Shown here: piece by piece, positions 4,216 to 20,949 of the stretch | Layout: every line of letters begins with the position of its first letter | How positions within the stretch are numbered: the stretch's first letter is position 1 | From: Candidatus Omnitrophota bacterium | GTDB lineage: Bacteria; Omnitrophota; Gorgyraeia; Gygaellales; Profunditerraquicolaceae | Assembly: GCA_963805065.1 (NCBI GenBank) | Contig: CAWDSS010000010.1 | Span: 275,696 to 339,695 of the forward strand | Direction of reading: 5' to 3' | Length of the DNA: 64,000 nt | Made by a program: the position numbers and the translations under genes | Notes under the pieces: generated by a model | Seen by the model: only the letters and a program-made list of their open reading frames with translations | The model's database searches: none | What the model was told of the DNA's origin: nothing

Positions 4216-4637
4216 AAAAAATTTTAATGTAAAATTTTTTGGATTCTGTAGGCAATGCTTAGATTAATCTAAGCATTGCCGCAAGAATCTCCAAAGTCGT
4301 TCGCTATTGCTTAATCAATACTTATCAGTAAACAAATAACAGTTGTTGCTTTATTTATTACGTAGCTTTATATTTTAGGACGCTCACTCCTCATAGGGGA
4401 AACCCGTTTGGTTTCCCCTGATGACGCTCTCCGCCAGCTGTTAGCTTTGGTCGCTGTCACCCCTTCCTTCGCAATTTAGAGAAACATCCTTAAGGGGAAA
4501 ACAATCTTTTCCCCTTAATAATCCCTTTTTTAGGTTTTTAACAACAGAACTTAAAACCACTTCTATTGTCCTGCTTCGCAGGATAGTTGTTAAAAACCTT
4601 TGTCGTTCGCTTGAGCTTTGTTTGTCAGATTACCAGA

Positions 4638-4869: not shown

Positions 4870-5151
4870 TCAGCCTCTGAATACCAGTAAAAAAACTACT
4901 GAAGAAATAATACAGATTAATCCGACAATAACCCTTTTCTTTAATAGGCTTTCCTGAAAAGTATAAATCGTAGTCTCTAACTTAGGGATCATTATTTTTT
5001 TTAACCCAAAAATTTCTTTACCTAAAATACCTTCTAGTCTTCTGTATTTGTACTCGGCAATTAACAATAATACTCCCACTACAAAAACCACGGGGCTGAC
5101 GAATAATAACGCACTTTTCATGATATCGAAAATCGTTAATTCCGGAGCCAT
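4870..5151 (-). CDS. small membrane protein, two predicted TM helices, unknown function
   Basis: 93-aa ORF with hydrophobic segments ALLFVSPVVFVVGVLLLIA and VIVGLICIISSVVFLLVF. It lies between two tRNA-Ser genes. Confidence 0.45.
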   Translation of the reverse strand: MAPELTIFDIMKSALLFVSPVVFVVGVLLLIAEYKYRRLEGILGKEIFGLKKIMIPKLETTIYTFQESLLKKRVIVGLICIISSVVFLLVFRG

Positions 5152-5192: not shown

Positions 5193-5350
5193 GGCACTGA
5201 AATACATTATTTCAGTTACGCAATAGGCACCAAAATACATTATTTTGGGTCTCAATAGGTACTAAAATATATTATTTTGGGCAACGATAGGCACTGAAAC
5301 ACATTGTTTCAGTGCCACCGCTTAGCTTCATTAATGAAGCTAAGCGGTGG
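5193..5350 (-). repeat. tandem hairpin-repeat array 3 plus tRNA trailer hairpin (downstream of tRNA-Ser TGA)
   Basis: Four units with a 32-33-nt period start at 5193, 5226, 5258 and 5290. One example is GGCACTGAAACACATTGTTTCAGTGCC at 5290-5316. The trailer palindrome is at 5315-5350 (CCACCGCTTAGCTTCATTAATGAAGCTAAGCGGTGG). Confidence 0.85.
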
Positions 5351-5433
5351 GGGTGAGATTTGAACTCACGGAGGGGAGAAATCCCCTCAACAGTTTTCAA
5401 GACTGCCGCTTTCAACCGCTCAGCCACCCCACC
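5345..5433 (-). tRNA. tRNA-Ser (anticodon TGA)
   Basis: The reverse complement reads GGTGGGG TG GCTGAGCGGTTGAAAGC G GCAGT CTTGAAA ACTGT, then a long variable arm, then GTGAG TTCAAAT CTCAC CCCCACC G. No CCA is encoded. Confidence 0.85.
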
Positions 5434-5543
5434 TATCCTGTTTTTCCCGCATCTATGAATTTTATTGTCGGGCGGGATCCCGCCTGTGATTTAATAGCCG
5501 AGCGGGACAAGACAAGCCCATTCGACCACTCTGGCACCCCACC
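5434..5543 (-). pseudogene. tRNA-like 5' half (class II, Ser-like) interrupted by a 63-nt twin-hairpin module and truncated after the anticodon stem
   Basis: The minus strand reads GGTGGGG TG CCA GAGTGGTCGAA TGG G CTTGT CTTG, then [TCCCGC-N18-GCGGGA][TCCCGC-N21-GCGGGA], then AAA ACAGG ATA, after which tRNA-Ser(TGA) begins. The variable arm, T arm and 3' acceptor strand are absent. Confidence 0.55.
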
Positions 5544-5551
5544 AGAACTAA

Positions 5552-6238
5552 TTATAAGAAAAGCTGTTTAAACACAGCATAAAATATACTCTCAGCCGAA
5601 AGGAATGCGCTGTTGAAGAAATTAACAAAGGAGAACTGTTTAAAAATGAAACTAAGGCTTAGGGAAAGCAGGATTAAATTGACTATAAAAATAAAAGAAA
5701 ACCCGAAAATGTAATTTGCTTTCAGGAAATCATTTTGTTTTGTCCGCACTGACTTTGCGCTGAATACCAAATGTAATGCCACACTGAAACTAAAAATAAA
5801 CAAGAAAAAATAAAAGAAATCTTTGGATTTAAAAATTAAAGAAAGCGGTAAGTACAAAATAAATACAATAATCGCATAGACCGGCAATACGAACGGCGCC
5901 ACCTTTACCAGAGGAGAAAAGAAACTGAATATAACCTCAAGCAGCCTGTGGCCTTTACGATAAATCGCTGCCGGTTCAAACACAAACAAATGTATGAGAA
6001 GAAAAGTTATTATGCCTGCCCAAAAATAACTTTGCGACGGTAAATCTATCAGCCCTAATTCTTTTAAAAATGATACCGATATCGAATATACGAACGGCAA
6101 AAGGCAAACCCCTAAGACAAATTTTATGATTCCAAACAACTTATCGGAAATTCCCGATATTCTGGAACGAGCACCCTCTAAAATCCTGGGACCCTCTTTT
6201 TTAGGAAGTTCTTTCTTAGGAAATTCTTTCTTTTCCAT
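5552..6238 (-). CDS. polytopic membrane protein, unknown function
   Basis: 228 aa. A lysine-rich N-terminus (KKEFPKKELPKKEGP) is followed by about 6 hydrophobic helices. The gene overlaps the serS 3' end by 23 nt. Confidence 0.5.
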   Translation of the reverse strand: MEKKEFPKKELPKKEGPRILEGARSRISGISDKLFGIIKFVLGVCLLPFVYSISVSFLKELGLIDLPSQSYFWAGIITFLLIHLFVFEPAAIYRKGHRLLEVIFSFFSPLVKVAPFVLPVYAIIVFILYLPLSLIFKSKDFFYFFLFIFSFSVALHLVFSAKSVRTKQNDFLKANYIFGFSFIFIVNLILLSLSLSFIFKQFSFVNFFNSAFLSAESIFYAVFKQLFL

Positions 6239-7484
6239 CTAAATATGTCCTTAAGACTTGCGGTATTATTACCGAGCCGTCTTTTTGTTGGTAGTTCTCA
6301 ATTATCGCTATCACTGTGCGCGCCAAAGCAATGCCTGAACCGTTGAGGGTATGTACAAAATCGATTTTCTTCGTGCCTTTTCTTCTGAATCTTATATTTG
6401 CCCTGCGTGCCTGGAAACCCTCAAAATTTGAACAACTGGATACTTCCAGCCACTTGTCCACTCCTGCGGCATATGCTTCAAGGTCATAGCATTTGCTTGC
6501 GGAAAAACTCAGATCTTCTGTAGATAACATTACTACCCGGTAAGGTAAACCCAATAATTGAAGTACCTCCTCTGCATCCTTGACTAATTTTTCCAACTCA
6601 TCATAAGAAGTCTCAGGCTTAACAAATTTAACCATTTCCACTTTATCAAACTGATGCACGCGCATAAGGCCTTTGGTATCTTTGCCGTATGAACCTGCCT
6701 CTCTTCTAAAGCATGCGGTATAAGCAGTATAATAAATAGGCAAGCTATCTTCGTCTAAAACTTCGTCCCGAAAGATATTTGTTACCGGCACTTCTGCGGT
6801 AGGAATTAAAAATAAATCGTCATCTTTTAAGCGGTACATATCTTCTTCCAGCTTGGGAAGCTGGCCTGTGCCGGTCATGGAAGCCCTGTTTACCAGAAAA
6901 GGTGGAAAAACTTCAGTATAGCCGTGTTTTTTGGTATGCAAGTCAAGCATGAAGTTTAATAATGCTCTTTCAAGTTTTGCACCCCAGCCTTTATAAAGAA
7001 TAAAATTTGAACCCGTGATTTTTGCCGCGCGGTTAAAATCAATTATATCCAGATGCTGGCTAAGTTCTATATGGCTAAGCGGCTGGTAATCAAATTTTGG
7101 CAAATCGCCCCACGAGCGCACAGTTTCTTTTTTTGAATGATCTCCGATAGGAATGGTTGAATCTGGTACATTAGGAATAGTTAACAATATTTTATCTAAC
7201 TCGGTTTCTGCTTGTTTTAATTTGTCTTCCAGTTGATCTATTTTATTTGAAATCTCCTTCATTGAGTAAATTTTTGCTTTTGCATCTTTTTTCTCTTTTA
7301 ATAGGCCGGTGATTTCATCGTTTGCCTTGTTCCTTTTTGCCCTTAACTCTTCCAATTCAACCAGGGCCTGCCTTCGCGCATCATCAACTTTCAACAAGGC
7401 AGATAAATCTAGCTTGAGATTACGGTTGTTCAAAGACTGCTTTACTAAATCCTGATTTTCGCGAATGAATTTTATGTCTAACAT
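6216..7484 (-). CDS. serS: seryl-tRNA synthetase
   Basis: 422 aa. It has an N-terminal coiled-coil tRNA-binding arm (MLDIKFIRENQDLV...) and class II core motifs (FRREAGSYGKDTKGLMRVHQF, TLNGSGIALARTV). Confidence 0.95.
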   Translation of the reverse strand: MLDIKFIRENQDLVKQSLNNRNLKLDLSALLKVDDARRQALVELEELRAKRNKANDEITGLLKEKKDAKAKIYSMKEISNKIDQLEDKLKQAETELDKILLTIPNVPDSTIPIGDHSKKETVRSWGDLPKFDYQPLSHIELSQHLDIIDFNRAAKITGSNFILYKGWGAKLERALLNFMLDLHTKKHGYTEVFPPFLVNRASMTGTGQLPKLEEDMYRLKDDDLFLIPTAEVPVTNIFRDEVLDEDSLPIYYTAYTACFRREAGSYGKDTKGLMRVHQFDKVEMVKFVKPETSYDELEKLVKDAEEVLQLLGLPYRVVMLSTEDLSFSASKCYDLEAYAAGVDKWLEVSSCSNFEGFQARRANIRFRRKGTKKIDFVHTLNGSGIALARTVIAIIENYQQKDGSVIIPQVLRTYLDGKERIS

Positions 7485-7485
7485 T

Positions 7486-8946
7486 TTATCCTTTTATTAC
7501 TCCTAATGGTCGCATCCTGCAGACGCGCTTGGAAATACCCACATTATGCACTACATCCACCACATCATTAATATCTTTATAAGCCTGGGGAGCCTCTTCT
7601 ACAATAGTGCCTCTGCCCGACGCTTTAACAATTATACCCTTAGATTCCAATTCTTTCAACAACATATTCAAGTCAATAGACTTAGTGGCAGATGTGCGCG
7701 ATTTTAGTCTTCCTGCGCCATGACAGGTAGAATAAAAGGTTTCTTCGGCTTTTGCAGTACCTACCAACAGATAGGAATTTCTTCCCATATCTCCGGGTAT
7801 AATCACAGGCTGGCCTGTTTTTTTATACCTCTGTGGCAATGCAGGATGCCCCGGGCCAAAAGCTCGCGTTGCTCCTTTTCTATGCACGCACAGCGATTTC
7901 TCCTTGCCATCAATTTTATATTTTTCAATTTTCGCAATATTATGTGCTACATCATAAATCAGAAACATTCCCAATTTCTGCCACGACGCTCCAAAAATAC
8001 GCTCAAAAGATTTACGCGTAAGATGCATCAGGCACTGACGGTTATTCCAGGCATAATTAGCAGCGCACTTCATAGCTGCCAAATATTGTTTACCTTCGGC
8101 AGAATTTACCGGAGCGCAGGCAAGCTGCCTGTCAGGTACATTGATATTGTATTTCTGAAGGCAATGAACCATGTTCTTTACATATTCATCGCATATCTGA
8201 TAGCCGAAACCCCGCGAGCCGGAATGGATCATCACTGTAACCTGGCCTAGATTAAGCCCGAATTCATCACAACAATCCCTATCGTAAAGTTGATCGATGA
8301 CTTGAACCTCAAGAAAATGATTTCCCGAACCCAGGGTCCCTGATTGCGCCTTTCCCCTTTCATAAGCCCTGTCTGAAACAGCATCGGGATCAGCGCCTTG
8401 TATTGCGCCATTTTCTTCAGTGCATTCCAAATCTTCCTGTGTCCCGTAACCTTTTTCTACCGCCCACTGAGAGCCTTTTACCAGAATTTCTTTTTCTTCT
8501 CTTGCGCTGACCCTGATATCGCCTTTTGAACCCACGCCAGAAGGCACATCAGAAAACAATGCATAAACTAAATCTTTGATTTTATCCTTTATTTCATCAT
8601 ACTGAAAATTAGTTTTTAATAATCTAATGCCGCAATTTATGTCATAGCCGACGCCTCCGGGAGAAATCACTCCGCCGTTTTCAATATCAGTCGCAGCTAC
8701 CCCTCCTATCGGAAAACCATAGCCCCAATGTATATCAGGCATGGCTAACGACGCATTTACAATTCCCGGTAAAAATGCCACATTAGCCACCTGCTGGGCT
8801 GCTTTGTCGTTACGGATATCCTTTAATAATTTCTCGTCTGCATAGATTATCCCCGGAACACGCATACCAGGCTGGTATGACTTAGGTATGCGCCAGCGAT
8901 AATCATCAATTTTCTCTAAAGGTCCATTCCAAACCTCAGACATCAA
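7486..8946 (-). CDS. rtcB: RNA 3'-phosphate/5'-OH ligase RtcB
   Basis: 486 aa with RtcB signature segments: GYDINCG, GSGNHFLEVQ, HSGSRGFG, CHGAGR and PLGVIKG at the C-terminus. Confidence 0.93.
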   Translation of the reverse strand: MMSEVWNGPLEKIDDYRWRIPKSYQPGMRVPGIIYADEKLLKDIRNDKAAQQVANVAFLPGIVNASLAMPDIHWGYGFPIGGVAATDIENGGVISPGGVGYDINCGIRLLKTNFQYDEIKDKIKDLVYALFSDVPSGVGSKGDIRVSAREEKEILVKGSQWAVEKGYGTQEDLECTEENGAIQGADPDAVSDRAYERGKAQSGTLGSGNHFLEVQVIDQLYDRDCCDEFGLNLGQVTVMIHSGSRGFGYQICDEYVKNMVHCLQKYNINVPDRQLACAPVNSAEGKQYLAAMKCAANYAWNNRQCLMHLTRKSFERIFGASWQKLGMFLIYDVAHNIAKIEKYKIDGKEKSLCVHRKGATRAFGPGHPALPQRYKKTGQPVIIPGDMGRNSYLLVGTAKAEETFYSTCHGAGRLKSRTSATKSIDLNMLLKELESKGIIVKASGRGTIVEEAPQAYKDINDVVDVVHNVGISKRVCRMRPLGVIKG

Positions 8947-9352
8947 AAATCACCTCTGCCATCCAGCCGGAATCCGACTGTTCCAATTTCAATTCATGAT
9001 AAGTAGCTGCCTTTATCTCGGTATTTACTTTATAATTTTTCATGTCGCTGCCTGCAACAACAGCCTCCAGGCTATGCTTATCTATTTTGTTTATCTTAAA
9101 ATCGCAAAATATCAGCGCCTTGGCAGCGGATAAAGACAATAATTCATTCAGCCAATTAACAAAAAGCTCATCAATATTATCCGCGCTCTGCTTAATTTGG
9201 ATTTGGTTGACTTTCTTAGCGCAATGCCCTGATTCTTCAGCCATAATGTCAAACATCGCGCGGGCAGTTTTTCGAAATAATTCTTCCAGGCTAGCCGCTG
9301 TTATTTTGACGCCTACGTCTGCGGTATGCTCGATCAGCTCATAATCCTTCAT
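8936..9352 (-). CDS. archease (RtcB activator family)
   Basis: The ORF track starts at 9373, but that ATG lies inside the tRNA-Lys acceptor stem/CCA. The second Met (MKDYELIEHTADVGVKI...) gives the canonical archease N-terminus. The gene overlaps the rtcB start by 11 nt. Confidence 0.8.
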   Translation of the reverse strand: MKDYELIEHTADVGVKITAASLEELFRKTARAMFDIMAEESGHCAKKVNQIQIKQSADNIDELFVNWLNELLSLSAAKALIFCDFKINKIDKHSLEAVVAGSDMKNYKVNTEIKAATYHELKLEQSDSGWMAEVIFDV

Positions 9353-9362
9353 GGGAGGGAAA

Positions 9363-9438
9363 TGGTGGGCCATGTAGGAGTCGGACCTACGACCTTGACA
9401 TTAAGAGTGTCCTGCTCTGCCAATTGAGCTAATGGCCC
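9363..9438 (-). tRNA. tRNA-Lys (anticodon CTT), CCA encoded
   Basis: The reverse complement reads GGGCCAT TA GCTC AATTGGCA GAGC A GGACA CTCTTAA TGTCA AGGTC GTAGG TCCGACT CCTAC ATGGCCC A CCA. It has an unusual C at T-loop position 55. Confidence 0.75.
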
Positions 9439-12262: not shown

Positions 12263-12505
12263 CTAATACACCCCTTTTGTATTGATTATAGATTGTAATC
12301 TTTGAGAATCAATTTTTGACCAAACTAAACCACAGAATGAGCAGGCATTAAAATTGTTCTCCACCTGAATATTGGTGAAGAAAATTGCATAAAATGGCAG
12401 GTTCGCTGGCCTGAAATACGCCGGAGGATTAACATAATCAACCTGATTATAAACCTTGCCTACAACCGTTGCTTCACCATGGCATTGCGGGCACTTAACA
12501 CTCAT
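12263..12505 (-). CDS. zinc-ribbon-containing hypothetical protein
   Basis: 80 aa with SD AAAGGAGGAAAG. It has an N-terminal CPQCHG knuckle and a distal CSFCG knuckle. The stop overlaps a variant of the shared terminator (12250-12278). Confidence 0.5.
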   Translation of the reverse strand: MSVKCPQCHGEATVVGKVYNQVDYVNPPAYFRPANLPFYAIFFTNIQVENNFNACSFCGLVWSKIDSQRLQSIINTKGVY

Positions 12506-12522: not shown

Positions 12523-12653
12523 TGCGCCTGGCAGGAGTTGAACCTGCAACGCCTAGCTCCGAAGGCTAGCGCTCTATCCAGTTGTCCCGCTATATCATTT
12601 AGTTCCGCTAGCGGGATCCCGCCTGCTATGGAATAGCTTGGCGGGAAGCTACA
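12523..12653 (-). pseudogene. tRNA-Arg-like gene (anticodon TCG) interrupted in the D arm by a 62-nt twin-hairpin module, with a decayed 5' acceptor strand
   Basis: The minus strand reads ..TG TA GCT, then [TCCCGCC-N16-GGCGGGA][TCCCGCTA-N16-TAGCGGGA], then C AACTGGATA GAGC G CTAGC CTTCGGA GCTAG GCGTT GCAGG TTCAACT CCTGC CAGGCGC A. The 7 nt that should pair with CAGGCGC read TTGAATG, giving only 4 of 7 pairs. Confidence 0.55.
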
Positions 12654-12660
12654 TTCAAAA

Positions 12661-12733
12661 CGCGCCCGAGTGGAGTCGAACCACCAATAGCCAGTTCCGA
12701 AGACTGGTGCCTTATCCATTAGGCCACGGGCGC
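12661..12733 (-). tRNA. tRNA-Arg (anticodon TCG)
   Basis: The reverse complement reads GCGCCCG TG GCCT AATGGATA AGGC A CCAGT CTTCGGA ACTGG CTATT GGTGG TTCGACT CCACT CGGGCGC G. Confidence 0.85.
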
Positions 12734-12734
12734 A

Positions 12735-18488: not shown

Positions 18489-20949
18489 CTAAAATCCGTG
18501 ACTTGCGCTGAAATGCAACCTTCCGTTGCCTCTATGGTCTTGCCCGGTCAGCTTATTCATAGGGATACCATAATCGAGCATTATTGGCCCGATGGGTGTC
18601 TTAATTCTCACTCCCAGGCCAACGCCTGTCTTAAAACCGCCTTGGCCGATATCGCCTAATTTAGACCAGACATTACCCGTATCGCAAAATGCTGCCAATT
18701 TAAGGAAGCTCATTAACGGATATGTATATTCTATATTTCCTACGATCATGGCGTCGCCACCCAAAGGATCAGAAGAAGCAGGATCAATAGGCCCGACTTC
18801 TCTTTCTTTATAGCCTCTTATCGTATAAGCGCCTCCTGCAAAGAATCTCTCATATATGGGGATTTTTTCTGAGTTCGAATAAGGCTCAGCTGCTCCTACC
18901 CGAGCCCTTACCTCAAGGACAGAATCTTTTGGCAACGGGAAATAATGCGACGCCCTGCCAAAAAATTTCCAGTAATCCTTATCCCCGCCAAAAGGCCCGC
19001 CTGCCAACTCAAAAGACCCATTTAACAAATTTCCTCTTTTTGGATCAAACACATTATCCCTGTTATCGAAAGTAAGGCTGGGGGTTAAACTGCTTATAAC
19101 ATTCTTTCCAGCTTCGCTTTTAAGATCATCACTTGCCGCATCATCTACATTCCTGATATCTATGCTGTCAAGCCGATAGGTTATGTCTGACCTGAGATAT
19201 TCGGATAATTCTTTGCCTAAACGTAAATCCCCTCCCGTAACATCCTCATCATAACCATAACCGACATCCTCATTTTGTTTATGAGTTCGGCGGTAGGCAT
19301 CAAAGCCAAATGATACAGGATAGTCAAAAACCCAGGGATTAGTAAAACTTAACTCGAAACCCGAACTAACGGTTCCGGTGGAAGCGCGGAGCCTTAAGTC
19401 CTGGCCGGCCCCGGTAAAATAAGGAAAATTCTTCCAGTCAAAATTCTTCTGCTCTACCTCTATGAATCCGATTAATTGATCAACGGTGCTGTATCCGCCT
19501 CCAAAGCTGAATGCTCCTGTCTTTGCCTCTTTTACCTCAACAATCAAATCCTTCTTATCGGGTACCTGTGTGTTTTGGGTATCGTAATTTATTTCTTCAA
19601 AAAAGCCTAAGTTTTGCAACCTCTCTCTGCTGCGCCGTAGCTTATCTCCGTCGAACCTTTCGCCGGGGTGTATCCTTAATTCTCTGCGGATGACCACATC
19701 GCGGGTTTTTATGTTCCCGCGTATCTTTATCTTATCCAGATATGCGATGGTATTTTCTGTTATATTATAGGCGATATCGACCCTGCCTGTATACGCATTT
19801 ACAGAACTGGTATCTTCTACCTGGCAGGAAATGTAGCCTTTATCAAAATACAAGCTCTGGATGTTGGCTACATCCTCTTTTAAAGCATCGTTGCTGAAGA
19901 CCTTGCCAGGGATACATTCTTTTAATTTTGCCAAAATATCTTTCTCTGGAATATCCTTATTCCCCGGAAACAGTGATATTGCCTACAAGATACTTTTTGC
20001 CTTCAACTATTGTAATGTAGACAAATAATAAATACGCCCTTTTTACATCGGGCTTAACTTCATATTCAACTGTTGCGTCGGTAAAGCCCTGCCTGTGATA
20101 AAATGACCTTAAGCGTTCGATGTCTTCCTTTAATACCTCATCCTTAAGCACCCCGGCATTAAATAACCAGGCGCTTTTTGTCTTCATTAATTTTAGCAAG
20201 CGGCCTGAACTAAATGCTTTATTGCCTTCTGTAACAATTTTTTTAATCCTTACTTTCTTGCCTTCGCTCACATTAAATTGTATATTTGCTTTAGTGCCTT
20301 CTTTGTTTAAATCTATCTTGTAATCGACCTCGGCCTGGCTAAAACCCATTTTCTCATACATCTGTTTAAGCGTGCGCACATCCGCAACAAGACTAGGCTG
20401 ATCGAGATACTGTTTTTCTTTTGACTTCAGTTGCTCTTTGAGTTTCTCGTCCTTCATGGTAATACGCCTGATGCCGGAAAAATTAATCTTATCAATTATC
20501 GGCCGTTCTACAACCGAAACTATGACTTTAATACCATCTTTGTAATCTTCGGTATCTATTTTTATATCGCTGAAAAAACCCAAAAGGTATAGCCTTTTTA
20601 AATCATCACTGGTAATATTTTCTTTGTAGGAGGCACCTATTCGGGTTTTCATTTTGGAAATAATGTTGTTGGTGCTTATGGATTTATTCCCTTTGACTTC
20701 AATCGCTGTAACTAATTTTTCTTCCTTTGGGGCAGTTGTGGTAGTAGAAGGTTCTTGAACTGAGGGTTGATCTTGGGCGAAGGATAAATGACAAATGAAT
20801 ACCAAAGCACAAATTACAAAACTTAAAGAAAAGGGGACGTTTCTATTTTTCTGCTGATTAGGAGACGTTAAAAATAGAAACGTCCCCTTTATTTTGGGTG
20901 TTGAATTGCCTGAATTAAAGGCTTTATTTTGACATTGGGATTTTGTCAT
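18489..20949 (-). pseudogene. bamA: outer-membrane protein assembly factor BamA, interrupted by one frameshift
   Basis: ORF 19957..20949 holds the signal peptide and POTRA repeats. ORF 18489..19934 holds the last POTRA and a 16-strand-type barrel ending HFSASHGF. The frames join if one G is removed from GGGG (plus-strand CCCC 19962-19965): ...NITVSGNKDIPEKDILAKLKE... Confidence 0.85.
20830..20890 (-). terminator. GGGGACG hairpin family copy 1 (terminator-like)
   Basis: A 21-bp stem, AAAGGGGACGTTTCTATTTTT / AAAAATAGAAACGTCCCCTTT, with a 19-nt loop. On the minus strand it is followed by TCTTTAAGTTTTG. It lies inside the annotated N-terminal extension of bamA, downstream of dnaB. Confidence 0.55.

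Follow-up and report, generated by a model that had tools for sequence, protein, structure and literature searches.

The subject of this analysis is a tRNA-Arg(UCG)-like sequence interrupted by a 62-bp double hairpin in a 64,000-nucleotide stretch of a Candidatus Omnitrophota genome (contig CAWDSS010000010.1, positions 275,696 to 339,695 of the forward strand), referred to here as the window. We put at roughly 0.7 the probability that this sequence is a dead, displaced copy of tRNA-Arg(UCG), plugged by a mobile double hairpin, and that it is the nuclease-less footprint of an element that invades tRNA genes with a GIY-YIG nuclease gene. In related loci the nuclease gene, partial tRNA repeats and hairpins are physically associated, and by analogy with these the window locus appears to belong to the same system. 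The architecture recurs across genomes, the double hairpin (hereafter the module) inserts precisely at sites with a target consensus, it is mobile, its units form tandem arrays, and duplication of its flanks is restricted to tRNA contexts.

Read on the minus strand, the Arg locus begins with an intact and presumably functional tRNA-Arg(UCG) (12660..12734), called by ARAGORN and by the Rfam tRNA model (64 bits) and compared with the tRNA-Arg genes of two related loci, L027 and L044. A 7-nt spacer, TTTTGAA (12654..12660), separates it from a relic with the same anticodon. The short arm of the relic, TGTAGCT (12647..12653), corresponds to tRNA-Arg nucleotides 6-12 in a junction-spanning alignment to the L027 tRNA-Arg(tcg) from position 6. 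The 62-bp twin-hairpin module (12585..12646), with the form TCCCGCC-N16-GGCGGGA / TCCCGCTA-N16-TAGCGGGA, was identified by pattern, fold and family and lies between relic nucleotides 12 and 13. The long arm (12523..12584), aligned to L027, carries the lineage-typical tRNA-Arg(UCG) sequence from nucleotide 13 to the discriminator, beginning CAACTGG / CAACTGGATAGAGC and finishing CAGGCGCA. The spacer resembles the trailer TTTCAAA found 3′ of the relic, a likeness between spacer and trailer that is also seen in L067 and L109, and it occupies the site at which related loci (the analogues L184 and L202, described below) carry a GIY-YIG open reading frame (ORF).

An earlier note, made from the sequence alone, had described an Arg(TCG)-type sequence from nucleotide 13 onwards, had taken TGTAGCT for nucleotides 6-12 with the module between 12 and 13, and had found that the first five acceptor nucleotides, TTGAA in place of GCGCC, do not pair. 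All of this was borne out. Positions 12523-12584 match positions 13-74 of the tRNA-Arg(tcg) of L027, a related metagenome-assembled genome, with 96.8% identity over 62 nt. When the module is removed in silico, the junction is contiguous with the same gene from position 6 (96%, 52 nt), which places the insertion point after nucleotide 12. The relic lacks GCGCC, five of the seven nucleotides of the 5′ acceptor strand, and ARAGORN calls a tRNA in the reconstructed sequence only once GCGCC is added back. The note's view of a tRNA gene interrupted by the module is not supported: in situ the relic scores 24.4 bits on the Rfam tRNA model, against a gathering score of 29, and the reconstruction as it stands is negative with ARAGORN.

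The window holds a second footprint, also on the minus strand, at a tRNA-Ser locus. The earlier note had pointed to a homologous module at 5445-5507, at another position in another tRNA family, and this too proved correct. The 63-bp twin-hairpin module (5445..5507; pattern and fold) sits in the anticodon loop of a tRNA-Ser(UGA)-type relic, between nucleotides 35 and 36. The long arm of this relic, nucleotides 1-35 (GGTGGGGTGCCAGAG...CTTG; 5508..5543), was assigned by sequence and by alignment to L044. The short arm, AAAACAGG, comprises loop nucleotides 36-38 plus the 3′ side of the anticodon stem, after which comes a 3-nt spacer, ATA (5434..5444; sequence and alignment). Directly downstream lies an intact tRNA-Ser(UGA) (5344..5433; ARAGORN and Rfam). 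Across the junction the relic is 88.6% identical to positions 1-44 of the L044 tRNA-Ser(tga). Everything 3′ of the anticodon stem is missing from it, the intact gene follows 3 nt further on, and the sequence with its module excised is not recognised as a tRNA by ARAGORN. The Ser module is more degenerate than the Arg module and has a fold z-score of -1.8; the Arg module folds into two hairpins with -30.1 kcal/mol and z = -4.0. Four TCCCGC-N18-21-GCGGGA hairpins occur in the window against 0.04 expected, and all four lie inside these two modules. Further modules, tRNA fragments and nuclease remnants were sought in the window and none was found; the one extra tRNA-like match, 16 nt resembling tRNA-Ala inside coding sequence, was judged to be due to chance.

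The earlier note had proposed a genome-wide search for the module pattern. Scanning public genomes, one per species, yielded at least 118 loci, so other copies do exist. By label, 85 of these are Omnitrophota, including the complete genome of Velamenicoccus archaeovorus; among the loci listed there are also 16 “uncultured Planctomycet*” bins, some of them syntenic with the window, and one chance match. The 126 copies listed comprise 124 in the scanned loci and the two in the window. The 124 distinct modules listed share conserved ends, hairpin potential and a layout of two tandem hairpins joined at a GCGGGA/TCCCGC palindrome. Their stems are 6-7 bp long, and the seventh pair covaries (Watson-Crick in 189 of 248 cases, against 53% expected). 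On the tRNA-sense strand G-T pairs outnumber A-C pairs in the stems, and the module is found in either orientation. A search of Rfam with the module returned no family at E ≤ 1. Uhrbacteria and unclassified bins carry a shorter, 54-nt variant. This ~54-nt form has an extended central palindrome, CTTTGGCGGGATCCCGCCAAAG (L043, L031, L050, L053, L085, L096, L110, L113 and L047), and in L043 two inverted short modules (228-281 and 4974-5027) surround 4.7 kb with five ORFs. The hairpin units can be separated from one another like cassettes: L119 (about 1395-1470) has one small hairpin lying within another's loop, single hairpins occupy two different loops of one tRNA-Tyr fragment in L113 (about 4470-4560), and one array unit in L107 has only half a module.

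At 47 of the 126 listed copies (37%), all in partial tRNA gene copies, deleting the module leaves an unbroken tRNA sequence, in many cases matching the neighbouring gene at 100% identity. These insertions fall in the T arm (20), the D arm (15), the anticodon loop (11) and the anticodon stem (1). Exact excision restores contiguous sequence in tRNAs and also in TatD genes, which means that the module inserts without target duplication. The flanks have the consensus T(-3) T(-2) N/N A(+2) A(+3), which holds equally at 78 distinct non-tRNA sites and fits T loops (GTTC/RAAT) and several anticodon loops. Insertion into hairpin loops in general had been considered and was replaced by the T-T-N/N-A-A target, as flanking stems occurred at 18% of non-tRNA sites and at 18% of controls. 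None of the 126 listed modules interrupts a complete tRNA when excised with four boundary variants and examined with ARAGORN. Thirty-three lie within 60 nt of an intact tRNA gene, each inside a partial tRNA copy. Two arrangements are seen. In the downstream type, to which the window Arg locus belongs, an intact tRNA is followed by a short spacer, a short arm, the module and the remainder of the tRNA to its 3′ end; in the upstream type, represented by the window Ser locus, the 5′ part of a tRNA is followed by the module, a short arm, a spacer and the intact tRNA. Short arms have a median of 8 nt across the module family, and the intact tRNA and the partial copy are separated either by 3-38 nt or by a single ORF of ~85 amino acids that encodes a GIY-YIG protein. 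Local direct duplication of the flanks was found in 21 of 47 tRNA contexts and 3 of 79 others; a long target-site duplication made by module insertion was considered and rejected, flank duplication being confined to tRNA contexts.

The remaining 79 listed copies lie outside tRNA sequence, 62 of them between genes and 17 inside ORFs of at least 100 amino acids. All 17 are in frame, with lengths of 54-63 nt that are multiples of three, and are translated as inserts of 18-21 amino acids (SRQA...AGK, YPAK...RD) in host proteins that are otherwise full length. The hosts are TatD (L013, L059, L080, L083), EPSP synthase (L038), a GlgC-like protein (L008), the peptide deformylase Def (L020, L062), SMC (L074), PurL (L035) and a Macro-Nudix protein (L076, L097), and the module-bearing TatD, EPSP synthase, GlgC-like, Def and Macro-Nudix proteins have full-length Pfam matches. 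TatD homologues occur in forms of 252-253 and 273-276 amino acids that differ by a 21-amino-acid insert at a single site, and the closest homologue, 88% identical, is without the insert. The module is therefore mobile, as judged by this presence/absence polymorphism. No target-site duplication, cognate RAYT (REP-associated tyrosine transposase, where REP stands for repetitive extragenic palindromic) or other transposase was found with it, and none of the transposase families is over-represented in the 2 kb around modules.

It is extremely improbable that a real tRNA-Arg gene carries the module as a kind of intron, cut out by an endonuclease before the exons are rejoined by an RtcB/archease ligase encoded nearby. 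Precise insertion at loop positions, the archease-RtcB operon at a distance of 3.6 kb and the preference of the stems for G-T over A-C pairs would all suit an intron; yet five of the seven 5′ acceptor-stem nucleotides are absent, an intact isoacceptor stands next to the relic, and none of the 126 listed excisions gives a complete tRNA. As constant module ends meet variable exon ends, no exon-intron pairing can be conserved and no bulge-helix-bulge (BHB) motif can form. No Rfam intron or ribozyme matches the module, and inside proteins it is translated in frame. The module is thus probably not spliced and would have no part in making tRNA-Arg. The suggestion in the earlier note of an element that enters tRNA sequence or is tolerated there holds as far as precise insertion and mobility go, but the host is not an expressible or spliceable tRNA gene.

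The partial copy could also be read as an attR-type scar of an integrase-encoding island or prophage in tRNA-Arg that has since been mostly deleted, with the twin hairpin as the residue of an element end. The anticodon and T loops are reportedly the classical crossover sublocations, a point ascribed to Williams in 2002 that counts for such a scar. Partial tRNA direct repeats beside intact tRNA genes are a hallmark of integrase-mediated integration (PMC9897764). Set against this, no integrase or cargo lies between the repeats, which have spacers of 3-38 nt; the module is inside a repeat rather than between repeats; the sole gene found between repeats is the ~85-amino-acid GIY-YIG ORF; and the module also occurs in frame in proteins. 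We consider this origin highly unlikely. A phage or integrative-island origin of the element was also pursued and dropped: a megablast search of 10.5 kb against phage records was empty, the module pattern had no match among the 2.9 million viral contigs of IMG/VR, and no integrase was found near modules.

Where a module and an intact tRNA gene are 260-300 nt apart, the interval encodes an ORF of ~85 amino acids with a GIY-YIG domain (Pfam PF01541, E-values 1e-15 to 4e-17), whose closest solved relatives are UPF0213 proteins (1zg2). Fourteen such ORFs occur across the 118 or more module loci, and GIY-YIG is the sole protein family enriched within 2 kb of modules; integrase families, like those of transposases, are not enriched. 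The ORF usually runs into the intact tRNA, with the TAG of the D arm as its stop codon. ORFs in L055, L094, L098, L068, L089, L119, L120, L123 and L125 have no stop of their own, and their C-termini read ...PSSSLV* or ...DPIV*. Since the stop lies within the tRNA, processing of the tRNA by RNase P would remove it, which is a possible means of expression control. Five loci located through the protein (L119, L120, L123, L125 and L126) and one found by pattern (L055) share a single layout, in which gyrA is followed by a 5′ copy of tRNA-Glu with the module, 14-28 nt, the ORF from its ATG and an intact tRNA-Glu at the 3′ end of the ORF. Units are arranged in tandem in L072, L082, L015 and L107. In the L072 array, units without the ORF retain its last ~35 nt, which identifies footprints lacking the ORF as deletion derivatives. 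A single composite transposon (module, ORF, tRNA and module at position 35/36) was considered as the mobile unit and set aside; it fits L125 and L126, and the outer fragments of L123 are of different tRNA-Glu types. In several Omnitrophota (L123-L126) the GyrA encoded beside the tRNA-Glu/GIY-YIG locus carries intein and LAGLIDADG domains, so more than one kind of selfish nuclease element is present in this neighbourhood.

The position of the module just before the ORF start raises the further explanation that the hairpins are selected as functional RNA or DNA structures, as a stabiliser or processing site of the nuclease mRNA, as a terminator or insulator after tRNA genes, or as a guard against misfolding of the leader with the real tRNA. 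The constancy of that position, covariation of the seventh stem pair, the sense-strand bias towards G-T pairs and the presence of unrelated hairpin sequences at equivalent sites in other lineages all speak for selection on structure. Modules nevertheless occur in either orientation, inside coding sequence and in contexts that do not look transcribed, and the window copies have no ORF to regulate. A functional role of this kind, which we regard as very unlikely, is compatible with the interpretation of the Arg relic as the footprint of a GIY-YIG element.

A second sample was centred on the nuclease and comprised 80 metagenomic loci at 33-63% identity, 60 of them with enough flanking sequence. 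A tRNA gene abuts the 3′ end of the ORF in 40 of the 60, with at least 13 isotypes represented. A 5′ tRNA fragment lies upstream of the ORF in 34 of 44 abutting loci, and at least 17 of these 34 fragments have hairpin insertions in the D or anticodon loop. The hairpins are lineage-specific, for example TCCCGC..., TCCCGA..., small TCCCGCC/CCCCGCC pairs, CCTGCCTGCC/GGCAGGCAGG, and a TCRCCC.../CCACCCGTGAGGGTGG pair. An identical 20-nt perfect palindrome, CCTGCCTGCCGGCAGGCAGG, interrupts the D arm or loop in the upstream tRNA-Lys, tRNA-Arg(UCU) and tRNA-Leu fragments beside GIY-YIG ORFs (L150, L175 and L199), and constitutes a second, unrelated hairpin family in the same role. Two loci are ORF-containing versions of the window Arg layout. 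In L184, tRNA-His and the ORF are followed by a 3′ copy with T-loop hairpins. In L202 (contig Ga0190271_10222619, about 940-1100), tRNA-Ser(UGA) and the ORF are followed by a copy that lacks its first ~4 nt and carries four small TCCRCAGGATCCTGYGGA-like palindromes, in the D loop, the anticodon loop, the variable/T junction and the T loop, while only one base differs from the intact gene. Four insertions against one substitution point to a targeted, fast process rather than slow neutral accumulation. A downstream fragment in L135 is likewise plugged in both the anticodon loop and the T loop.

These loci bear on the strongest competing account, that the module is an independent selfish palindrome with no tie to the GIY-YIG gene, similar to Rickettsia palindromic elements (RPEs), REP sequences or miniature inverted-repeat transposable elements (MITEs), that partial tRNAs arise by ordinary tandem duplication or through other elements, and that the module accumulates in them by target match and tolerance. 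The 79 copies outside tRNA sequence, including those in frame in housekeeping genes and with the same target consensus, are what such a palindrome would leave; the nuclease gene is absent from the window, and the 14 GIY-YIG ORFs are few for the number of module loci. It is harder to reconcile with the six Omnitrophota GIY-YIG loci in which the module precedes the ATG by 14-28 nt, five of them located through the protein and not through the module, with other nuclease lineages that have different hairpin families at the same loop positions, with the four plugs and single point substitution of L202, and with the lack of enrichment of any transposase family near modules. We judge a wholly independent palindrome unlikely.

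The history of the window loci can be read from L027 and L044, which are orthologous neighbourhoods with 65-72% nucleotide identity to the window. The typical tRNA-Arg(UCG) is the intact copy in L027, with a module-bearing T-loop fragment after it, and the intact gene of L044 comes after several 5′ Arg fragments that contain hairpins. The window has the typical Arg sequence as its relic, and its working gene is an atypical variant that has only nucleotides 1-5, GCGCC, in common with the typical one. This is the pattern expected if an incoming segment of nucleotides 6-73 had taken the place of the native gene from position 6 onwards, shifting the native copy downstream. The tRNA-Ser(UGA) types swap roles between the window (5344-5543) and L044 (7070-7319): the type that is plugged in the window is the intact type in L044, and the reverse.

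We propose that the native tRNA-Arg(UCG) copy (nucleotides 6-73) was displaced when a mobile element rebuilt an intact gene immediately upstream, and that the nuclease gene was later deleted from both the Arg and the Ser locus of the window, leaving a relic and its hairpin. In this scheme the GIY-YIG protein would cut tRNA genes in or near loop sequences of the T-T-N/N-A-A type. Repair of the double-strand break from an element-bearing template would bring in the ORF together with a replacement tRNA segment, and the host would keep a working tRNA. Hairpins would be copied into the cut sites of the dispensable copy and block re-cleavage, and the plugs would interrupt the direct repeat so often that no remaining stretch is long enough for the ORF to be lost by recombination. 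The module may also spread alone, much as RPEs do, and would survive where it is harmless, in intergenic DNA, at permissive in-frame sites in proteins and in dead tRNA copies. Its association with tRNA would then reflect both the displaced partial copies left by the GIY-YIG element and the match of the T-T-N/N-A-A target to tRNA loops.

Several points weigh against this interpretation. The 64-kb window contains no GIY-YIG ORF or remnant (best tblastn E-value 0.38), so the link to the nuclease rests on analogy for the locus described here. The nuclease activity, target site and transfer of the GIY-YIG element are inferred from sequence. D-arm sites, among them the window Arg site (GCT/CAA), fit the T-T-N/N-A-A consensus only partly or poorly. 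The intact tRNA keeps the loop sequences of the plugged copy, so immunity conferred by the plug would leave the working gene cleavable, unless recognition also requires the native leader. Symmetric loci such as L123 have outer fragments that do not come from one native gene, and no single insertion model fits all loci. Finally, many distant homologues of the nuclease do not lie beside tRNAs, for example L121 and 20 of the 60 sampled loci.

Among known systems, dispersed palindromes that include in-frame protein inserts were reportedly described as RPEs by Ogata and colleagues in 2000. Like RPEs and the palindromic MITE and REP repeats of bacteria, the module is short, dispersed and hairpin-forming, shows presence/absence polymorphism and is found between genes, in RNA-gene sequence and as translated in-frame inserts of ~20 amino acids. 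It differs from them in having two tandem hairpins, no target-site duplication and a defined T-T-N/N-A-A target, in being concentrated in partial tRNA copies, and in having a GIY-YIG partner rather than a RAYT/HUH or DDE transposase. The double-hairpin elements (DHEs) of fungal mitochondrial genomes (Paquin, Laforest and Lang 2000, in PMC10085805) are G+C-rich, tens of base pairs long and composed of two adjacent hairpins; they are putatively mobile, have no known function, and lie between genes and inside rRNA genes, where they are kept in transcripts (PMC10085805). The module shares with DHEs the two adjacent G+C-rich hairpins and repetition within a genome, but is bacterial and chromosomal, appears unrelated in sequence, and is tied to tRNA fragments and a nuclease, a link that descriptions of DHEs do not include.

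Free-standing homing endonuclease genes offer the other parallel. SegB of phage T4 is reported to be a GIY-YIG homing endonuclease whose gene lies in a tRNA gene cluster (PMC2330249) and which drives segmental amplification (PMC13096335), and homing endonuclease genes of fungal mitochondria are reported to duplicate the end of the gene that they invade (PMC4162613, PMC6506933). Here too a nuclease gene lies beside or in tRNA genes, a carried replacement segment keeps the host gene, a native fragment is displaced and units occur in tandem. The protein, however, is a bare UPF0213-type catalytic domain of ~85 amino acids with no recognisable DNA-binding domain, the ORF usually ends at the D-arm TAG, the displaced copy is systematically plugged by hairpins, and cleavage and homing are putative, with the flank consensus T-T-N/N-A-A of the module as the one hint at a cut site. 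Archaeal BHB tRNA introns at non-canonical positions and bacterial group I tRNA introns resemble the modules as discrete insertions in the D arm, anticodon loop or T loop, with related inserts in different tRNAs; in contrast, the module has truncated hosts and neither a BHB motif nor a group I core, an intact gene free of introns stands next to it, and there is no sign of removal at the RNA level. The system looks like a variant of free-standing homing-endonuclease elements and palindromic selfish repeats. We found no description of a GIY-YIG/hairpin-plug system in the full-text literature, a search whose coverage excludes most subscription journals.

The surroundings of the two loci are those of a bacterial chromosome, with lpxI, lpxA, an lpxC-fabZ fusion, lpxD, bamA and dnaB, and the minus strand carries most of the genes. 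The BamA homologue is present as two adjacent ORFs (18489-20949, minus strand), one of 330 amino acids with POTRA repeats (19957-20949) and one of 481 amino acids with POTRA and Omp85 domains (18489-19934), and a genuine split, a frameshift or an error of assembly may account for this. An ORF of 80 amino acids (12263-12505, minus strand) with a strong Shine-Dalgarno sequence starts 17 nt past the Arg relic; its product is Cys-rich and zinc-ribbon-like, with no confident family (best Pfam E-value 0.002). Genes for tRNA-Lys(CUU), archease (8936-9373), RtcB (7486-8946) and seryl-tRNA synthetase (6216-7484) form a tight co-directional block (6216-9438, minus strand) that leads into the tRNA-Ser cluster. 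The archease-RtcB operon thus lies between tRNA genes, in the same order in L044. It had been considered as the source of a splicing ligase for the module and was discounted, being syntenic in L044 whatever the state of the element; nothing was found to connect RtcB with the hairpins, and we treat the adjacency as coincidental.

For annotation, the loci show that a tRNA-like sequence with a clean insertion may wrongly be taken for a gene with an intron; such sequences are better recorded as displaced relics. The architecture that recurs, a gene for a GIY-YIG protein of ~85 amino acids wedged between an intact tRNA gene and a hairpin-plugged copy, spans many isotypes and several uncultivated phyla. 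We tentatively suggest, as a possibility on which we would not yet rely, that the small GIY-YIG gene and its hairpins together make up a class of tRNA-gene parasite that has not been described before and occurs widely among uncultivated bacteria (Omnitrophota, Patescibacteria-like bins and others). Such a parasite would cut tRNA loops, be repaired in with a fresh tRNA segment, home unspliced, intron-like plugs into each cleavable loop of the displaced copy, which would immunise that copy and break up the repeat that could otherwise delete the element, and give rise to MITE-like solo offspring that also enter proteins. If this mechanism is true, selfish nucleases would have a novel means of residing in essential RNA genes that does not depend on splicing, and the family could serve as a source of compact nucleases with structure or loop specificity. 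It also provides a concrete functional hypothesis for the widespread UPF0213 and other small GIY-YIG proteins.

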